Of a DNA stretch of 22,748 bases, positions 3,881 through 21,682 are shown in pieces; position 1 is the first letter of the stretch; the number at the start of each line of letters is the position of its first letter. A program made the position numbers and the translations under genes. This DNA comes from a virus (taxonomy: Duplodnaviria; Heunggongvirae; Uroviricota; Caudoviricetes): IMG/VR virus record IMGVR_UViG_2534682096_000014. One strand, given 5' to 3'. The notes under the pieces are model-generated. The model was not told the DNA's origin and did no database searches. It saw only the letters and a list, made by a program, of their open reading frames with translations.

Positions 3881-4269
3881 GCAACACATTTAAATTCAGC
3901 AGCCGGAGCGAAAAGAATTTGCAGGGCGTAAATCCTGATCTGGTGAAAGTGACCCGACGGGCACTGGAAATTTCGGAAGTGGATTTTGGTATCACCGAAG
4001 GGTTGCGCAGTCGTTACCGCCAGAAGCAACTTGTGGCCACGGGTAAGAGCCAGACCATGAACAGCCGCCACCTTACGGGACATGCCGTGGATGTTGTGGC
4101 TTATATCGGCAGCCAGGTGTCATGGGAATGGCCGCTGTACGAAAAAATCGCAGCAGCATTCAGACAGGCCAGCCGGGAACTGAATATTCCGGTGGAATGG
4201 GGCGGCGACTGGAAGACCCTGAAAGACGGACCGCATTTTCAGTTACCACACGGAGCCTATCCGGCATGA
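3877..4269 (+). CDS. endolysin, peptidase M15 / VanY-like zinc peptidase type
   Basis: 130 aa; SRHLTGHAVDV and WGGDW...GPHFQL motifs resemble L-Ala-D-Glu peptidase-type endolysins; ATG overlaps the holin stop (ATGA). Confidence 0.65.
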   Translation: MSNTFKFSSRSEKNLQGVNPDLVKVTRRALEISEVDFGITEGLRSRYRQKQLVATGKSQTMNSRHLTGHAVDVVAYIGSQVSWEWPLYEKIAAAFRQASRELNIPVEWGGDWKTLKDGPHFQLPHGAYPA

Positions 4270-4673
4270 AGCTCTGGCCCACGCTGGGTGTCGCTTTCCT
4301 TCTGATTGCCGCATGGGGAACATCCATGCGTCTGTCGTGGTCGCTGGGCCGGGAGAACGCCAGAAACGAAGCGCAGGCCAGCGCCCTGAAAAGTACCGTC
4401 GACACCCTGAATATCATCAGCACCGGGGTACAGGATATGCAGCAGGTGCTGGCGCAACTCCGCGTGGAAAATCAACAGAGAAATCAGGACGGAGAGGCCA
4501 GACGTGAACAGCTACGCAACGATATTGCAAAAGATGAATGCGCCCACGCTTTGCCTGACGCTCGTTTTACTGACAGGTTGCGCAGGCACGCAGAACGCGC
4601 CACTGCCAGCGCCGTCAGTCCGGCTTATACCGCAGACGCTGACCATACCGGTAACGCCTCCCCCCTTCCCTGA
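4266..4673 (+). CDS. lysB: i-spanin (LysB/Rz-like)
   Basis: ATG 4266 overlaps the endolysin stop; N-terminal TM helix LWPTLGVAFLLIAAWG followed by a charged, coiled-coil-like region. Confidence 0.6.
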   Translation: MKLWPTLGVAFLLIAAWGTSMRLSWSLGRENARNEAQASALKSTVDTLNIISTGVQDMQQVLAQLRVENQQRNQDGEARREQLRNDIAKDECAHALPDARFTDRLRRHAERATASAVSPAYTADADHTGNASPLP

Positions 4674-5277
4674 CACTCCCACATGGGGAAATCTCGGTAT
4701 ATGGGGCGACCGCCTTCTGGATGCACTGGAAACCTGTAACGCGGATAAACGGGCCATTGAATTACTGGAACAGCGCAGGCTGCAACGACTGAACAACGAG
4801 GATAACAACCATGCTGAAACTGATTCCCTGCGTGAAGCCATGACCCGTTCATGCCGATGGTGTCAGGCCAACCCGGAAAAATTCACCATTTTCGTGGAGA
4901 GCGGCAACATTGAAACGACCGGAGAAACGCCCTCGTTTGTTTACCGCTATCAGATGGTGATGTTTGTCATGGATTACGCCGGGGAGCTGGACGACCTCAC
5001 GCTGCCGCTGCTGGCGTGGTTATCCGAAAATCAGCCACAGTTGTTGCTCAACCCTGAGCGTAATCAGGACATCAAATTCTCCGCCGTTATCAATGACGAT
5101 GACAGCGCCGATCTCCTGTTTACGCTCCCCCTGCGGGAACGCGTTCGCATCACGCGCAGCAGTCAGGGCACACCGCAGGCAGAACACCTGCCGGAGCCAA
5201 AACCCCGCCTGCCCTCTTCCGAAGGCGACTGGTCGCATGTATTCCAGGATGTGACGTGGGGTGAAAGCGATGGATAA
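4534..5277 (+). CDS. lysC: o-spanin (LysC/Rz1-like lipoprotein) reading frame, open in-frame into the body of R; expected stop near 4821 is absent
   Basis: Lipobox LLTGC after MNAPTLCLTLV, Pro-rich region, +1 frame overlapping lysB (overlapped architecture); no in-frame stop until 5277. See findings. Confidence 0.45.
   Translation: MNAPTLCLTLVLLTGCAGTQNAPLPAPSVRLIPQTLTIPVTPPPFPDTPTWGNLGIWGDRLLDALETCNADKRAIELLEQRRLQRLNNEDNNHAETDSLREAMTRSCRWCQANPEKFTIFVESGNIETTGETPSFVYRYQMVMFVMDYAGELDDLTLPLLAWLSENQPQLLLNPERNQDIKFSAVINDDDSADLLFTLPLRERVRITRSSQGTPQAEHLPEPKPRLPSSEGDWSHVFQDVTWGESDG
4840..5277 (+). CDS. R: tail completion protein R (gpR-like) body; canonical-looking start ATG 4811 (MLK...) is out of frame with it
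   Basis: DSLREAMTRS...FTIFVESGN...LPLLAWLSENQP resembles P2 gpR; the first in-frame Met is at 4840; the frame-2 ATG at 4811 reads MLKLIPCVKP then stops. Confidence 0.55.
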   Translation: MTRSCRWCQANPEKFTIFVESGNIETTGETPSFVYRYQMVMFVMDYAGELDDLTLPLLAWLSENQPQLLLNPERNQDIKFSAVINDDDSADLLFTLPLRERVRITRSSQGTPQAEHLPEPKPRLPSSEGDWSHVFQDVTWGESDG

Positions 5278-5905
5278 GGCATTCACCCGCGTGGATGAAA
5301 CCTTTGAGGCCATCCGCGACAGCCTGAATCAGCAGGCCATCAATAACATCGCCAGAAAGCTGGCACAGGATTTACGCCGCGCCCAGCAGGCACGTATCCG
5401 GTCACAGAAAGCGCCGGACGGGACTGCATGGACACCACGCAGACGCCGCGTAACCCGGATACAGGAGCGCATTCGCTTTATCTGGAATAACGAAGCACGC
5501 ACGCTGAAAAACTGGCATCACGACACGGGGAAATACGGGCGAACCATTACCGGGTGGGATGAGGATAAAAACAATATCCGCACGTTTTACCGGGATGACA
5601 TCGACCGTTTTCTGGAAATACGCACCCGGCGCATCAACCAGGACAGCACAAAGCGCGTCCCCATGTTCGTAAAACTGCGCACCGCCCGCTACCTGAAAGC
5701 CCGTGCAGATGCTTCCGGTGTGACGGTGGGTTACAGCGGCGTGGCCGCACGTATTGCACGCGTTCATCAGTTCGGTGAGCGCGATCAGGTTGCGCCGGGC
5801 ATTTTCACCGATTACCCGGTACGTGAGCTGTTGGGTATCAGCCAGGCAGATGAGCGCCTGATTTATAACACGGTGCTGGGCCGGATTGCGGAGGCTGTAC
5901 GGTGA
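5270..5905 (+). CDS. S: tail completion / virion morphogenesis protein S (gpS-like)
   Basis: ORF 5261..5905; ATG 5270 overlaps the R stop; ARIARVHQFGE motif; position between R and V. GTG 5261 is an alternative start. Confidence 0.65.
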   Translation: MDKAFTRVDETFEAIRDSLNQQAINNIARKLAQDLRRAQQARIRSQKAPDGTAWTPRRRRVTRIQERIRFIWNNEARTLKNWHHDTGKYGRTITGWDEDKNNIRTFYRDDIDRFLEIRTRRINQDSTKRVPMFVKLRTARYLKARADASGVTVGYSGVAARIARVHQFGERDQVAPGIFTDYPVRELLGISQADERLIYNTVLGRIAEAVR

Positions 5906-7730: not shown

Positions 7731-8253
7731 TTCGTTGTTACCACCATCAGCCAGCAATTTCATGCGTTGTGCCGAAGCCGTCGGAACGCGCATTACAGAC
7801 ATTCCGGTAGACCTCAACACGCTGTGGTCGCCGGACACCTGCCCGGTGCATCTGCTGCCTTATCTCGCCTGGGCATTTTCCGTTGACCGCTGGGATCGCA
7901 ACTGGCCGGAAGAGACAAAGCGACAGGTTATTCGTGATGCATGGCTGATACACCGACACAAAGGGACCATCAGCGCACTGCGCCGGGCCATTGAGCCGCT
8001 GGGATACCTCATTCGCGTGTCTGAGTGGTGGGAGTTCGGCGGAGAACCGGGAACATTTACCGTTGAAGTCGGCACGCTGGACAGTGGCGTGACGGAGGAA
8101 ATGTATCTGGAAATGGAGCGGTTGATTGCTGATGCCCGCCCGGTCAGCCGCCACATGACAGGGCTGAATATCATTCAGGAAATTCCGGGGGATATTTTCG
8201 CAGCGGCGGCAACTTATGACGGTGAAGTTATTACCATTTATCCAGGCGATTAA
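7723..8253 (+). CDS. I: baseplate protein I (gpI-like)
   Basis: ORF 7690..8253; ATG 7723 overlaps the J stop; 176 aa, matching the remembered P2 gpI size. Confidence 0.75.
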   Translation: MSNSLLPPSASNFMRCAEAVGTRITDIPVDLNTLWSPDTCPVHLLPYLAWAFSVDRWDRNWPEETKRQVIRDAWLIHRHKGTISALRRAIEPLGYLIRVSEWWEFGGEPGTFTVEVGTLDSGVTEEMYLEMERLIADARPVSRHMTGLNIIQEIPGDIFAAAATYDGEVITIYPGD

Positions 8254-8255
8254 GC

Positions 8256-10481
8256 ATGAGTACCACAACACGAAAATTTAAAACCGTTATCACCGATACG
8301 GGTGCAAAAAAATTAGCTCAGGCAGCCGCGCCAGATGGTAAGCCTGTCCGCCTGACTCATATGGCCGTGGGCGACGGTGGCGGCACGTTGCCCACACCAG
8401 ACAGTAAGCAGACCCGTCTGGTGCATGAGGTGTGGCGACATACTGTTAATCGCGTCATCCTGGACGCAACACATCAGAACCGCATTATTGCGGAGCTAGT
8501 TATTCCTCCTGAAACGGGCGGATTCTGGATCCGGGAAATTGGTGTATTTGATGAGCACGGCGATTTAATCGCGGTGGGAAATACTGCCGAAAGTTACAAG
8601 CCAGCCGTTGCCGAAGGGTCCGGTCGTGCACAAACATTTCGCACCATTCTGACCGTATCCAGCACTGCCACCGTGGCGCTTACCGTGGATAACACCATGG
8701 TGATGGCCACAGTGGATTACGTGGATGACAAACTGAAAGAGCATGAACAGTCACGACGTCACCCGGACGCCTCGCTGACCGCAAAAGGCTTTGTTCAACT
8801 CAGTAGCGCCACTAACAGCGTGTCTGAAACGCAGGCTGCAACGCCGAAAGCAGTAAAGGCCGCGTATGATCTTGCTAACGGTAAATATACTGCGCAGGAT
8901 GCCAGCACGACGCGAAAAGGCCTTGTCCAGCTCAGTAGCGCCACCAACAGCACGTCTGAAACGCAGGCTGCAACGCCGAAAGCAGTAAAGGCCGCGTATG
9001 ACCTTGCTAACGCAAAATATACCGCTCAGGACGCTACGACGGCACAAAAAGGGATAGTCCAGCTCAGTAGTGCCACCAACAGCACGTCTGAAACACTGGC
9101 CGCGACATCGAAAGCGGTTAAGGCGGTAATGGATGAAACGAACAAGAAAGCGCCCTTAAACAGTCCTGCGTTGACCGGAACGCCAACAACGCCAACTGCG
9201 CGACAGGGAACGAATAATACCCAAATCGCAAGCACGGCTTTCGTTATGGCTGCGATTGCCGCCCTTGTAGATTCGTCACCTGACGCACTGAATACGCTGA
9301 ACGAGTTAGCGGCGGCGCTGGGAAACGACCCGAATTTTGCGACCACCATGACTAACGCGCTTGCGGGTAAGCAACCGAAAGATGCCACCCTGACGGCGCT
9401 GGCCGGGCTTGCTACTGCGGCAGACAAGTTTCCGTATTTTACGGGGAATGATGTCGCCAGCCTGGCAACCCTGACAAAAGTCGGGCGGGATATTCTTGCG
9501 AAATCGACCGTTGCTGCCGTTATCGAATACCTCGGTTTACAAGAAACGGTAAATCAGGCTTCTGGCGCATTACAGAAAAACCAGAACGGCGCAGATATTC
9601 CAGGAAAAGATACCTTCACAAAAAATATTGGTGCATGTCGCGCTTTTCACAGTGCTATTAGTACAGGGGCAGGGAACTGGACAACGGCACAATTGATTGA
9701 ATGGCTGGATTCTCAAGGGGCATTCAATCACCCATACTGGATGTGCAAATGTTCATGGTCATACGGCAATAATAAAATTATTACCGATACTGGCTGTGGA
9801 ACTATTCATCTTGCAGGTTGCGTTATTGAGGTTATGGGTAATAAAGGTGCCATGACCATCCGTGTAACCACCCCGAGCACTTCCAGCGGTGGCGGAACTA
9901 CTAATGCACAATTTACTTATATAAACCACGGTGGAGATTATGCGCCAGGCTGGCGGCGTGACTACAGTACCAAAAATCAGCAGCCTGCATTTGCTTTAGG
10001 GCAGACAGGAAGCACTGTTGGAAATGACAAAGCTGTTGGATGGAACTCAAATAGCGGCGTTTATAATGCGACTATTAGTGGAGCGTCAACATTGATTCTT
10101 CACTTTAATATGAATGCGGGGAGTTGCCCGGCGGTTCAGTTCCGTGTGAATTATAAGAACGGCGGTATTTATTATCGTTCAGCGCGAGATGGTTATGGAT
10201 TTGAGGCTGACTGGTCAGAGTTTTATACCACAACACGCAAGCCATCAGCAGGAGATGTTGGTGCATATACCAAAGCCGAATCAGATTCTCGCTATGTACG
10301 AGATATTCGCCTGGGCACACGTGTTGTTCAGACTATGCAAAAAGGCGTGATGTATGAGAAATCAGGTCATGCAATTACGGGGCTTGGCATTGTCGGTGAA
10401 GTTGATGGCGATGATCCGGCAGTATTCAGACCAATACAAAAGTTAATTAACGGAACATGGTATAACGTATCGCAGGTATAA
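8256..10481 (+). CDS. H: tail fiber protein H (expressed variant in the current orientation)
   Basis: 741 aa; conserved P2 H-type N-terminus, three tandem 44-aa shaft repeats, variable distal part, conserved extreme C-terminus; the 3' portion lies inside the invertible segment. Confidence 0.85.
8787..9182 (+). repeat. tandem coding repeat, 3 x 132 bp (44-aa tail-fiber repeat, third copy diverged)
   Basis: [44 protein letters not shown] repeated with period 132 bp (copies begin at 8787, 8919, 9051). Confidence 0.8.
9520..9601. repeat. left inverted repeat of the invertible segment, including a gix/hix-like crossover site (ttatcgaatacctcggtttacaagaa, 9520..9545)
   Basis: About 71 bp (9531..9601) matches the reverse complement of 12502..12572 at 69/71 positions; the outer 26 bp resembles the recombination sites of Gin/Hin/Cin/Pin systems. 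Confidence 0.7.
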
Positions 10482-10483
10482 TC

Positions 10484-11017
10484 ATGCAGCATTTAAAAAA
10501 CATTGTCGCAGGTAATCCAAAAACCGTTGAACAATATCAGCTAACAAAGAATTTTAATGTTATCTGGTTATGGTCCGAAGACGGAAAAAACTGGTATGAG
10601 GAAGTGAAAAACTTTCAGGAAGATACAATAAAACTGGCTTACACTGTAGAGGGAATAATTGTTGCTATGGATAAAGATGTATCGGCAATTAATCCAGAAG
10701 GTTTAAGTGTCGTTGAGTTGCCTGATATTACAGCAAATCGCCGGGCTGATATTTCGGGGAAATGGATGTTCAAAGATGGCGTAGTGATAAAGCGAACTTA
10801 TACCGAGGAAGAGCAGAGGCAACAAGCGGAAAATGAAAAGCAAAGCCTGCTACAGCTCGTCAGGGATAAAACACAGCTATGGGACTCACAGCTACGGCTG
10901 GGTATCATTTCCAACGAGAATAAACAAAAATTAACCGAGTGGATGCTCTATGCGCAGAAGGTCGAATCCACAGACACCTCCAGCCTGCCAGTAACGTTTC
11001 CAGAACAACCAGAATGA
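10484..11017 (+). CDS. G: tail fiber assembly chaperone (gpG / Tfa), expressed copy
   Basis: 177 aa immediately after H; N-terminus [20 protein letters not shown]; paralog of the - strand ORF at 11046..11573. Confidence 0.8.
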
Positions 11018-11020
11018 AAC

Positions 11021-11040
11021 AAGGCCCGCTATCGGGCCTT
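11021..11040. terminator. hairpin between the convergent Tfa genes (aaggcccg ctat cgggcctt, then T-rich on the + strand)
   Basis: 8-bp GC-rich stem followed by aatttttatt; sits at the centre of the invertible segment. Confidence 0.4.
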
Positions 11041-11045
11041 AATTT

Positions 11046-11573
11046 TTATTCAGGCTTTTGTGGCCATTCAGGATTTGCCGTATCCACACGGCTGACCAGA
11101 ACACTATAGCGTTCCCATGACTCCAGTCGTGCGCGTTCCTCATCCGTCGCCATATTCAGCCTGACAGCGCGTTCCAGTGGCTGAATAACGTTTTCTGCTT
11201 CGGAAAGTAACGCGGCCTTTTGTGATTCGGCCTGTTGTTGTTGCTCGTCTGCCGTATAAATCCGTTTAACCACAGCTCCGTCCTTAAACATCCACTTACC
11301 GGAATCATCAGCACGACGATTAGCTGTAATATCAGGAACCTCAACGACGCTATAACCTTCAGGGTTAAGCGTGGAGGCATCTTTGGTGATGGCGACAATA
11401 ATATTATTTGCATCGTAAACAATCTTTATTGTGTCTGGCTGAAAGTTTTTCACTTCCTCATACCAGTTTTTTCCGTCTTCGGACCATAACCAGATAACAT
11501 CAAAATTCTTTGTTAGCTGATATTGTTCAACGGTTTTTGGATTACCTGACTTAATGTTTTTTAAATGCTGCAT
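11046..11573 (-). CDS. alternative tail fiber assembly chaperone (Tfa'), silent cassette partner
   Basis: 175 aa; first ~45 residues nearly identical to G, C-terminal third diverged; convergent with G. Confidence 0.8.
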
Positions 11574-11576
11574 AAT

Positions 11577-12566
11577 TTACACCTGCGCAACGTTATACCA
11601 TGTGCCATTGATGTATTTTTGTATTGGTCTGAATACTGCTGGGTCATCACCATCAACTTCACCGACAATACCAAGCCCCGTGATTACATGGCCTGATTTT
11701 TCATACATCACGCCTTTTTGCATGGTCTGAACAACACGTGTGCCAAGTCTGACATCTCTCACATAGCGGGAATCAAAGTTACCGTAATCCGAGGGGTTAA
11801 CACGCCCTGTAATATTTATGGTTTTATTACTTTGAATGCTGCCGGAGACAAAGCGCATAACATGGACGTTATTAGCATAAACATCCAGATACCCGTCGCC
11901 ATTTTGTTTAAATCCCGTGTCATTATCACCCAAAACAATCGAGTTACCGCCAAGAGCACTGGATGTTCCGATACCCAATGCACCATTCAATTGACCGCCA
12001 GATAATGACAACGCCCCAACCTCAGCAGCAGTCGGTTTAATGTGCGAACTGTAAATTACATATACAGTTCCATCTGTCAGGCCTGTTGGTTTATTCGCTG
12101 TATAAGTTGGTGATGTATGAATTTGTACAGTTGCATCCTTTGTATAATCCCACTGGATATTAACACCTGTGGCGTAATTACCTATTTCTACATAAATGTC
12201 ATAGGTATCACCGGATGTATTCACCCATGCAAAATTAGTAAATCCAACCGAGGTCCGTCGCCATAATGCACCAGTAAGACCTTTTGGATTTCCATTTCCC
12301 GCACGAAGAACAAGTTCAGATATACCAGCCTGCATAGGGGAGTTAACATTATATCCAGCACCACCAATCAGACTTATGTAAACCACGGAACTGGCTTGTG
12401 GCATTGTTACAGTTGCCAGTTTGAACCATCCAGCACCACCACTAAAAGACATGGTTGTTGAATTTGTTGTGCCGATATTACGCAGGAATAGTTTTTTATC
12501 GGGAATATCTGCGCCGTTCTGGTTTTTCTGTAATGCGCCAGAAGCCTGATTTACCGTTTCCTGCAA
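11577..12566 (-). CDS. alternative tail fiber C-terminal cassette (H'), promoterless in this orientation
   Basis: Begins inside the right inverted repeat with the same [21 protein letters not shown] junction as H residues ~428-448 (the apparent start is a TTG continuing an upstream reading frame); conserved C-terminal ~60 aa, different middle region. Confidence 0.75.
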   Translation of the reverse strand: MQETVNQASGALQKNQNGADIPDKKLFLRNIGTTNSTTMSFSGGAGWFKLATVTMPQASSVVYISLIGGAGYNVNSPMQAGISELVLRAGNGNPKGLTGALWRRTSVGFTNFAWVNTSGDTYDIYVEIGNYATGVNIQWDYTKDATVQIHTSPTYTANKPTGLTDGTVYVIYSSHIKPTAAEVGALSLSGGQLNGALGIGTSSALGGNSIVLGDNDTGFKQNGDGYLDVYANNVHVMRFVSGSIQSNKTINITGRVNPSDYGNFDSRYVRDVRLGTRVVQTMQKGVMYEKSGHVITGLGIVGEVDGDDPAVFRPIQKYINGTWYNVAQV

Positions 12567-12637: not shown

Positions 12638-13225
12638 GTGCTGATTGGCTATGTAAGGGTATCAACAAATGACCAGAATACAGACCTGCAACGAAACGCT
12701 CTTGTTTGTGCAGGATGTGAACAAATATTTGAAGATAAATTAAGCGGGACAAAGACAGACCGACCGGGATTAAAACGCGCTTTAAAGCGTCTTCAAAAAG
12801 GTGACACGCTGGTTGTCTGGAAACTGGATCGCCTCGGGCGAAGCATGAAACATCTGATTTCTCTCGTCGGGGAACTACGGGAGCGAGGGATTAATTTTCG
12901 CAGTCTGACCGACAGCATAGATACATCTTCTCCAATGGGGCGTTTTTTCTTCCACGTGATGGGTGCCCTGGCTGAAATGGAACGTGAATTAATTGTTGAA
13001 CGTACACTGGCCGGACTGGCGGCAGCGCGCGCACGGGGGCGCACAGGCGGACGTCGACCGAAGCTGACAAAAGAACAGCATGAGCAAATAGCAAGGCTGA
13101 TTAAAAACGGTCACGACAGAAAACAACTGGCAATAATTTACGGCATTGGTACATCGACGATTTATCGTTACCACCCCGCAGGAGAATCAAGCGGAACAAT
13201 AGAGAAGAGTCAGAAAACAAAATAA
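12638..13225 (+). CDS. DNA invertase, serine recombinase of the Pin/Gin/Hin/Cin family
   Basis: VLIGYVRVSTNDQNTDLQRNAL... with the catalytic-Ser motif and a C-terminal HTH; GTG 12638 preceded by GGAG; the ORF track starts at TTG 12620. Immediately adjacent to the invertible segment. Confidence 0.85.
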   Translation: MLIGYVRVSTNDQNTDLQRNALVCAGCEQIFEDKLSGTKTDRPGLKRALKRLQKGDTLVVWKLDRLGRSMKHLISLVGELRERGINFRSLTDSIDTSSPMGRFFFHVMGALAEMERELIVERTLAGLAAARARGRTGGRRPKLTKEQHEQIARLIKNGHDRKQLAIIYGIGTSTIYRYHPAGESSGTIEKSQKTK

Positions 13226-18992: not shown

Positions 18993-20093
18993 ATGACCGA
19001 CACCACCATGCAATTGCTCAGTCAGGGCACAGACCCCGTGAAAATGCCGGATTTTGATATTCTCGCGGAGGGGAAAACGCTGTCCGGCGTGGCAGAGCGC
19101 CTGATGAGTCTGTCACTGACCGACAACCGGGGATTTGAAGCGGACCAGCTCACCATCACGCTGGATGATGCGGATGGTCAGTTGCAGCTACCGCCACGGG
19201 GCGCGCGCCTGACGGTTCTCATTGGCTGGAAAGGAGAACCGCTGACAGAAAAAGGCACTTACATTGTTGATGAAATCGCTCACGAAGGACCGCCGGACAG
19301 GCTGACTGTTTCAGCCAGAAGCGCAGATTTTCGGGATGAATTTAACGTTAAACGTGAGGTGTCCTGGCATGATGTGACCATTGAGCGTGTGGTATCCGCC
19401 ATCGCTCATCGGTATGGTCTGAAACCGCAAATCAGCGAAATGCTGATGGATATCGAAATCGACCACGCCGACCAGACTGAAGAAAGCGACATGTCCTTCC
19501 TTACGCGCATGGCGGAAATGCTGGGCGCAATCACCACGGTAAAAAGCGGTAATCTGTTATTCATCATGCCCGGCGGTGGCGTGAACGCACAGGGCCAGCC
19601 GTTGCCATCGTTCGCCATCACACGCAGCAGCGGCGATCGCCATCAGTTCCGCATTGCTGACCGCGAGGCGTATACGGGTGTACGCGCCTACTGGCTTGAT
19701 CTTAATTACGGGAAAAAGAAAAAAGTCAGCGTGAAACGCCGCAAACCGAAAAAGGAGAAAAGCAGCAGCCGGGAAGGCGACTATATGGAAGGCGCGGAAG
19801 GCAACGTGTTTGTGTTACGCAAGACTTATCAGAACGAGCAGGCAGCAAGACGTGCAGCGGCGGCAAAGTGGCAGCAGCTACAACGCGGAGCCGCAGCGTT
19901 CTCCATCACGCTGGCGTGTGGACGTGCAGAACTCTATCCCGAAATGCATGGCACGGTGACAGGCTTCAAAAGTGACATTGACAATCAGGACTGGATTATT
20001 GCAAAAGCCGAGCACACCATTGACAACAGCGGCTTTACCACTCAGCTTGAGCTTGAAGCAAAAATCCCGGAATGGATAGCAGAAACAGAGTAA
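18993..20093 (+). CDS. D: tail protein D (gpD-like)
   Basis: ORF 18972..20093; ATG 18993 follows GGAGGG by 5 nt; about 366 aa, comparable to P2 gpD. Confidence 0.8.
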   Translation: MTDTTMQLLSQGTDPVKMPDFDILAEGKTLSGVAERLMSLSLTDNRGFEADQLTITLDDADGQLQLPPRGARLTVLIGWKGEPLTEKGTYIVDEIAHEGPPDRLTVSARSADFRDEFNVKREVSWHDVTIERVVSAIAHRYGLKPQISEMLMDIEIDHADQTEESDMSFLTRMAEMLGAITTVKSGNLLFIMPGGGVNAQGQPLPSFAITRSSGDRHQFRIADREAYTGVRAYWLDLNYGKKKKVSVKRRKPKKEKSSSREGDYMEGAEGNVFVLRKTYQNEQAARRAAAAKWQQLQRGAAAFSITLACGRAELYPEMHGTVTGFKSDIDNQDWIIAKAEHTIDNSGFTTQLELEAKIPEWIAETE

Positions 20094-21090: not shown

Positions 21091-21351
21091 ATGTTTCGTT
21101 GTCCGCTTTGTGGCGCATCTGCCCGTATCCGCACCAGTCGTTCGGAAAATGATTCAGATACCGTGCGGAAAAAATATTACCAGTGTAACAACCTGGAATG
21201 CGGCGTATGCTTCTCAACACTGGAGGCTTTCCATAAATTCACATCGAAACACGCCCCAGGCGTTCACTCTTCAGAGGGCATCCCGTGGAATGAGCTGCCA
21301 GCTTCGCACAGGGGAAACAACCAAATGAGTTTGCCCTTACCTCAGAATTAA
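21091..21351 (+). CDS. ogr: Ogr/Delta-family zinc-finger late transcription activator
   Basis: MFRCPLCG...YYQCNNLEC has the CxxC-N22-CxxxxC arrangement of P2 Ogr; GGGAGG RBS; 86 aa. Confidence 0.8.
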   Translation: MFRCPLCGASARIRTSRSENDSDTVRKKYYQCNNLECGVCFSTLEAFHKFTSKHAPGVHSSEGIPWNELPASHRGNNQMSLPLPQN

Positions 21352-21411: not shown

Positions 21412-21624
21412 ATGGCTGGAGGGAATACCCGAAGGCCAGATGTGGAAAGGCCCCGGAAAACATTTCTGTTTAACCGAGGCCCTGACCATCTAACCTTAGC
21501 AAGTGATAGGTTAGCGCCTCCCCAAAAAAGGAGCAAGCGCTATGTCGCAAAAATCGCTTATGGCCATCACGTTCTGCGTGACGGTAATCCTCATCATCTG
21601 GATGCTGCACGGTTCGCTGTGTGA
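21412..21624 (+). CDS. mok-like overlapping reading frame of the hok-family locus
   Basis: 70-aa ORF overlapping the 5' two-thirds of the hok-like ORF in another frame, as in hok/mok/sok loci. Confidence 0.35.
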   Translation: MAGGNTRRPDVERPRKTFLFNRGPDHLTLASDRLAPPQKRSKRYVAKIAYGHHVLRDGNPHHLDAARFAV

Positions 21625-21682
21625 AATACGGATGAGCTTCTGGGGAGCGGAGTTTGCGGCGTTCTTACAGTGTAAGCAGTAA
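21542..21682 (+). CDS. Hok/Gef-family small membrane toxin (type I toxin-antitoxin)
   Basis: 46 aa MSQKSLMAITFCVTVILIIWMLHGSLCEIR...; single TM helix followed by the SLCEIR motif shared by Hok/Gef/RelF; AGGAG RBS 8 nt upstream; below the 60-aa cutoff of the ORF track. Confidence 0.6.
   Translation: MSQKSLMAITFCVTVILIIWMLHGSLCEIRMSFWGAEFAAFLQCKQ

Follow-up and report, generated by a model that had tools for sequence, protein, structure and literature searches.

At the boundary between the lysis and tail genes of the window, i.e., the whole stretch of 22,748 nt that was analyzed, the o-spanin gene lysC and the tail completion gene R are joined in a single reading frame. The window covers the late-gene half of a P88-like Escherichia coli prophage (Xuanwuvirus, Peduoviridae, P2 family), in which O, N, M, L, X, the holin gene, an M15 endolysin gene, lysB, lysC, R, S, V, W, J, I, and H are followed by tail-fibre assembly genes with an invertase, U, T, E/E′, FII, FI, D, ogr, hok, and host tRNA genes. 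This junction locus is common, being present in 693 of 5,426 complete E. coli genomes. The features at and around it are the following, each with the evidence on which it was placed.

4266..4673, plus strand: lysB, i-spanin (DUF2570), 135 aa, left intact by the lesion (tblastn match over the full length in one frame; relatives' annotation).
4504..5277, plus strand: fused ORF, LysC(1-95) joined to R(4-155) (ORF reading and Pfam matches).
4534..4818, plus strand: lysC (o-spanin), codons 1 to 95 (Pfam LysC match, relatives' annotation, and direct reading).
4798..4802, plus strand: GAGGA, Shine-Dalgarno (SD)-like, 8 nt upstream of the R ATG; putative function (direct reading).
4811..4843, plus strand: native R start ATG 4811, now a 10-codon ORF, MLKLIPCVKP, with its TGA stop at 4841-4843 (sequence and alignment).
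4817..4819, plus strand: the lesion, a run of three A's where relatives have four, inside the 14-nt lysC/R overlap ATGCTGAAAACTGA (alignment).
4840..5277, plus strand: R body from the internal Met-11, 145 aa (sequence; called by gene callers on contigs with the three-A run).
5270..5905, plus strand: S, tail completion/virion morphogenesis, intact, its start overlapping the end of R (full-length tblastn match; relatives' annotation).

The spanin genes are arranged as in P2. The ATG of lysC at 4534 (frame 1) lies inside lysB (frame 3), in the +1 frame, and the gene extends past the lysB end at 4673, which is the overlapped lysB/lysC architecture described for that phage (PMC3556154). The match of LysB to Pfam DUF2570 is weak and below the gathering score, and relatives annotate a DUF2570 protein at this position. 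The lipoprotein signal of LysC, MNAPTLCLTLVLLTGC, contains the lipobox LLTGC with Cys16 at 4579-4581 by direct reading, and thus has the signal peptide and lipobox Cys of a P2-type o-spanin. In relatives, the gene is annotated as "Rz1-like lysis system protein LysC" and ends at the equivalent of 4822, and the protein ends at 96 aa in relatives and P2 alike. The window has lost both the last codon (Asn96) and the TGA stop, so that the product is not a small o-spanin with a free C-terminus: the frame runs for another 152 codons into R.

The resulting ORF is uninterrupted from 4504 to its stop codon at 5275-5277 and would encode 257 aa from GTG 4504 or 247 aa from ATG 4534. Pfam assigns residues 22 to 86 of the fused ORF to LysC (PF23793; E 5.5e-12) and residues 107 to 232 to P2_Phage_GpR (PF06891; E 5e-38), and tblastn with the proteins of a close relative places LysC and R directly against each other at 4816-4818 in one frame. 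The original prediction of a lipobox ORF running stop-free into gpR-like sequence is borne out by these matches. The same tblastn comparison recovered the other late genes at full length, which leaves the lysC/R junction as the only frame disruption in 22.7 kb. Since the remaining late genes of the window are intact and match their homologues over the full length in one frame, the fused ORF is a specific and isolated lesion and not a chance ORF.

When the junction was aligned with its annotated counterparts in an E. coli chromosome, phage PhiR44_2, and phage P88, exactly one gap appeared, AAA (4817-4819; hereafter A3) in the window versus AAAA (A4) in the other three, in which lysC and R are separate genes. 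A 1-bp disruption had been suspected near 4819-4821, and the single missing A accounts for it. The run lies in the overlap of 14 nt, ATGCTGAAAACTGA, that lysC and R share in P88-like phages. With A4 restored, the lysC frame reads CAT GCT GAA AAC TGA and LysC ends in ...HAEN*, 96 aa from ATG 4534, while the R frame reads ATG CTG AAA ACT GAT and yields MLKTDSLREAM..., the 155-aa R annotated in relatives. The one-base repair that had been proposed therefore works as expected in that LysC ends after about 96 codons and R regains its own ATG, but the restored base is an A (giving MLKT) and not a C (MLKP). Between 4743 and 4869 no A3 carrier shows any other difference, i.e., there is no compensating change. 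The mononucleotide run is thus one base shorter than in the family consensus, and the junction carries an ordinary, rare one-base frameshift lesion, or else a consensus error of this assembly at the run, and not a new kind of feature.

The consequences for R are seen at its 5′ end. The ATG equivalent to 4811 starts the 155-aa protein in relatives. In the window it is out of frame with the R body and, as had been claimed, reads MLKLIPCVKP up to the TGA at 4841-4843, so that R (about 155 aa) is no longer translated from its own MLKxDSLR start. The gene is nevertheless recognizable as gpR by its position between lysC and S and by its profile match (PF06891; E as above), and residues 3 to 155 are 98.7% identical to R of relatives. 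ATG 4840, the codon of Met-11, overlaps TGA 4841 of the short ORF (ATGA), and because of this overlap it could serve as a termination-reinitiation start; direct reading found no SD-like sequence just upstream of it. Across 40 homologues, M1, L2, K3, and L7 of the R N-terminus do not vary, S6 and R8 reach at least 90% conservation, and P2 R, at 37% identity, has the motif as well. Met-11 occurs in the P88 clade alone, and none of the homologues compared starts there. In the AlphaFold model of R (pLDDT 85), residues 3 to 14 are part of helix 1. A Foldseek comparison of this model with the PDB returned the lambda gpU tail terminator as its best but weak hit (E 4e-3, TM ∼0.3) and no match at an E value of ≤0.001, and a sequence search of the PDB with R gave no match. 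The conserved motif, the lack of homologues starting at Met-11, and the placement of residues 3 to 14 in the modeled helix 1 together suggest that R lacking residues 1 to 10 is probably crippled. The P2 record annotates R as "essential tail gene; tail completion".

No natural counterpart of the fused protein was found. Exact look-ups of the 257-aa and 247-aa products retrieved no called gene anywhere, and a homology search of 5.8 billion protein clusters retrieved no fused LysC-R protein, the maximum query coverage being 62%. A natural LysC-R fusion family was therefore rejected, as no protein in the clusters spans both halves. We infer that gene callers avoid the 170-nt overlap of the long ORF with lysB and call the 145-aa product from ATG 4840 instead. 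This shorter product is called on 28 contigs, several of which carry A3, and its look-up exposed other carriers of the allele.

A3 proved to be rare. None of the 695 complete E. coli records with the junction has it (all 695 are A4); best matches in complete genomes were all in the 95 to 99% identity band, those listed being at 98.4%, which is the value for one gap. Exact-pattern scans, in which the A4 positive controls worked, found no A3 in the GTDB representative genomes (A4 in 1 contig), in IMG/VR (A4 in at least 120 contigs), or in the metagenome collection (A4 in 54 contigs). The loci that were fetched comprised 188 with A4, 4 with A3, and 1 with an inserted G. Carriers of A3 are the NCBI drafts AQAK01000085.1, AQEG01000113.1, and AQAL01000019.1, the ENA metagenome scaffold ERZ28645029 scaffold_970, and the Logan assemblies SRR29657607 and ERR14366148. 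AQAK01000085.1 matches the window at 100% identity over 15,277 nt, which makes it the source of the window or a clone. For comparison, the adjacent S protein occurs with identical sequence in 24,157 blocks of the collection, and at least 1,000 contigs have the 155-aa R allele that is commonest, so that A3 is a rare allele. The original prediction had held that close relatives with the same continuous frame, and with R starting at Met 4840, would speak against a disruption: the same continuous frame does exist in a very small minority of relatives, but no homologue starts at that Met.

Two further records came to light at this junction. The prophage copy in CP015240.1 carries a different lesion at the equivalent of about 4816, a +1 change by an inserted G (CTGGAAAAC), and is also frameshifted in L, endolysin, S, and T, so that it is either a noisy assembly or in advanced decay. 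A 226-kb contig titled Vagococcus sp. WN89Y, NZ_JBQPOM010000071.1, has an exact 37-nt match to the junction, which suggests that this GTDB representative genome, labeled as a Gram-positive Vagococcus, is contaminated or mislabeled.

The A3 carriers fall into six haplotypes that are 2 to 11 differences apart over 952 nt around the junction, and each of them has an A4 neighbor at a distance of 3 to 7 differences. Among the carriers, the polymorphisms that flank the run most closely (4674/4743 to the left and 4869/4929 to the right) occur in every combination. A shared A3 haplotype, which would have indicated a single origin, was looked for and not found. Six haplotypes with close A4 neighbors and every combination of flanks make the deletion look recurrent in this prophage family, at very low frequency; this is the simpler reading, because a single origin would need repeated recombination within about 50 to 75 nt of a very rare allele. 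Ascertainment helps this interpretation, as the look-up selects precisely those lesions that force an R call from Met-11. Other frameshifted R alleles are plentiful in public assemblies, e.g., P0015, in which the frame shifts after ...FTLP and which has 191 member sequences, and the many variants of this sort indicate that decay of R is commonplace among P88-like prophages. In another prophage copy, P0003 (276 aa, on an 11.6-kb Logan contig) joins the N-terminal half of the scaffold protein gpO to residues 38 to 155 of R, implying an O-to-R deletion or a misassembly.

Occurrence of the same allele in several unrelated data sets establishes A3 as real in nature, and the deletion is probably genuine in this record too. 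The competing account, which we consider unlikely though far from negligible, is that the true sequence is AAAA and that the consensus dropped one A of the homopolymer. The lesion does lie in a homopolymer and is absent from every complete-genome record with the locus; moreover, one AQ-series draft contig shares the window's sequence exactly, and three A3 carriers (AQAK, AQAL, and AQEG) come from that one accession series. Sibling assemblies of this series do not look clean: AQEG has two extra 1-bp deletions in the capsid gene, and AQFB01000011.1 has four private single-base indels in R and V (window-equivalent positions 4870, 4940, 4967, and 6057) against five substitutions to its nearest relative, L206, a pattern typical of consensus errors, which these four indels probably are. 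The indels have been carried into IMG/VR, since IMGVR_UViG_2534681760_000003 is 100% identical to AQFB01000011.1 over 9,093 nt. The junction is also a mosaic boundary or an assembly-graph branch point between the lysis and tail modules, with five draft contigs beginning at 4814-4833. A random error, however, cannot give the same missing base in six haplotypes from unrelated sources, among them a metagenome scaffold that is clean otherwise and two Logan assemblies built from the reads of other laboratories. The window shows no second frame disruption in its 22.7 kb. Its other homopolymers have lengths that are common alleles, as seen for the T-runs at 855 and 2840, and general under-calling of homopolymers in the window was rejected on this ground. 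A literature search for the sequencing platform found no paper naming the AQAK or AQEG assemblies. Among the fetched loci, the five contigs mentioned above (L132 to L136) are independent drafts that begin within 20 nt downstream of the A-run, and one scaffold (L215) has a 10-N gap there.

Our preferred reading, to which we assign a probability of about 0.62, is a genuine slippage deletion that damages lysC and R together as part of ordinary prophage decay, with no role in regulation or recoding. Of the four A's in the run, one would have been lost in the bacterial lineage, most likely by replication slippage, and both genes would be damaged because the deletion lies inside their overlap. The lysC frame then misses its TGA and runs into R, which would yield a 247-aa lipoprotein precursor, LysC(1-95)-R(4-155). 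From what is known of the family, this precursor would be exported, carrying the R domain out of the cytoplasm, and ribosomes starting at the R ATG at 4811 would make a 10-residue peptide and stop at 4841-4843. Normal cytoplasmic R would be missing, tail completion would be expected to fail, and the prophage would for that reason be defective or strongly impaired for infectious particles. On the lysis side, the o-spanin would be burdened with a bulky extension at its C-terminus, where it normally meets the i-spanin. Spanin subunits interact via their C-termini, and spanin defects result in Mg2+-stabilized spherical cells (PMC6139136, PMC5295617). As the subunits meet through their C-termini, the 152-residue extension likely impairs spanin function. 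The P2 record annotates lysC as "non-essential". Some R without residues 1 to 10 might still be produced by termination-reinitiation at ATG 4840, but it would miss most of the conserved first helix.

That last product is the basis of a sub-case of the slippage deletion with a different functional outcome, in which the deletion is genuine but tolerated: restart at ATG 4840 would give R without residues 1 to 10 that completes tails, leaving the prophage viable. Spanin damage would be tolerated as well because lysC is non-essential according to the P2 annotation, and viability would explain the recurrence of the allele. The deletion does create the ATGA stop/start overlap, a good SD-like GAGGA precedes ATG 4811, the other late genes are all intact both in the window and in L130, and A3 is found on six haplotypes. 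We nonetheless regard this outcome as quite improbable. Within residues 1 to 10 lies MLKxDSLR, the N-terminal motif that the family conserves best, and residue 11 is not the start of any natural homologue; the model puts residues 3 to 14 in helix 1; ATG 4840 is not preceded by a nearby SD-like sequence; and the frequency of A3, far below 1%, is that expected of a lesion which is deleterious, or neutral in a prophage, and not of a transmissible variant. Narrower still, and even less probable, is the proposal that A3 is both recurrent and tolerated, with a Met-11 restart giving sufficient R and a LysC-R fusion that is harmless or blunts lysis. If the tolerated reading were true, the lysC/R overlap would be a one-hit site at which hosts repeatedly tame the prophage, or at which the phage survives the hit. 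Programmed recoding, by −1 frameshifting or transcriptional slippage at the A-run that restores R or regulates a LysC-R fusion, had been offered as an option in the original prediction, and we consider it extremely improbable. If ribosomes slipped by −1 on AAA (4817-4819), the product would indeed read MLKTDSL..., and the P2 family does have a programmed −1 frameshift elsewhere, at E/E′. However, the junction has no X_XXY_YYZ heptamer (the frame of the R start reads CUG AAA CUG), and the 81 nt downstream fold at −20.3 kcal/mol, no better than shuffled sequences (z = −0.39). Three A's are far too few for transcriptional slippage. Nor is the arrangement conserved: all relatives whose retrieval did not depend on the allele have A4 and two ORFs, A3 is seen only in a handful of contigs from a targeted look-up, and the clusters searched contain no fused LysC-R protein (query coverage as given above). 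Recoding at lysC/R was thus rejected for want of a slippery heptamer, downstream structure, a sufficient number of A's, and conservation.

The window does contain a genuine recoding site, at E/E′. The heptamer T_TTT_TTG at 16774-16768 on the minus strand, within 17085-16559, lies near the end of a 121-aa tail-chaperone ORF that is followed by a 51-aa GpE-family ORF, and it is the classical P2 E/E+E′ programmed −1 site. Other parts of the prophage yielded observations of their own. Inverted repeats at 10284-10481/11577-11774 (198 nt, 87%) and 10480-10840/11217-11577 flank two opposed tail-fibre assembly genes and an alternative C-terminus of H; with a resolvase/invertase gene (12638-13222) adjoining the repeats, the 10284-11774 segment looks like a Gin/Cin-type invertible host-range segment. 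Compared with L125 and L126, gene D (18993-20093) has an in-frame 9-bp (3-aa) deletion at 19749 that keeps the frame. At the end of the prophage, a hok/gef-family toxin gene (21542-21682) and the ogr late-gene activator (21091-21351) adjoin the host tRNA-Leu/Cys/Gly cluster. Finally, some relatives carry an insert of about 1.9 kb between lysB and R, where lysC would end (649-2526 in L194 and 648-2526 in L199); it encodes a DUF1737/SASA (sialate O-acetylesterase-like)/DUF6645 protein, the 5′ end of R is diverged (MLKTNSLRKGMIHG...), and the insert is a moron at this same junction.

For annotation, lysC and R are best recorded as disrupted by a frameshift, and neither the long fusion protein nor a 145-aa R should be entered. 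The prophage should be flagged as probably tail-defective although it looks complete. Otherwise, the lesion is of an ordinary sort, and the E. coli prophage that carries it is very common. The case illustrates how the loss of one base where two genes overlap can harm both of them.

The closest relatives, phage P88 and related phages (e.g., NC_026014, PhiR44_2, and 500465-2), are 97 to 99% identical to the window in nucleotide sequence at the lysis-tail junction and have an identical gene order, but they have AAAA, with lysC and R separate, whereas the window has AAA and fused frames. P2 (NC_001895) shares the order holin, endolysin, lysB, lysC, R, S. Its lysC (8202-8492; 291 nt, 96 aa) begins within lysB, in the +1 frame, and continues past its end, as in the window, and its R (8455-8922; 155 aa) has the MLK-DSLR start of P88-like R; the LysC length of 96 aa and the gpR start MLKPDSLRRA that had been given for P2 both agree with the P2 record and sequences. 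The 3′ end of P2 lysC likewise overlaps the start of R, by 38 nt versus 14 nt in P88-like phages. The endolysin of P2 is lysozyme-type (K) and is accompanied by lysA, whereas the phage of the window has an M15 peptidase endolysin and no lysA. The P2 E/E+E′ system has a genuine slippery site, in contrast with lysC/R, at which slippery heptamer, conservation, and stimulatory structure are all lacking. A further parallel is with the frameshift pseudogenes of decaying prophages, in which, as in the window, essential late genes of a prophage that is intact elsewhere are broken by the loss of one base from a short mononucleotide run; the lysC/R lesion differs in that, owing to its place in a two-gene overlap, it fuses the upstream gene to the downstream one, cuts the latter off from its start, and creates an ATGA context.
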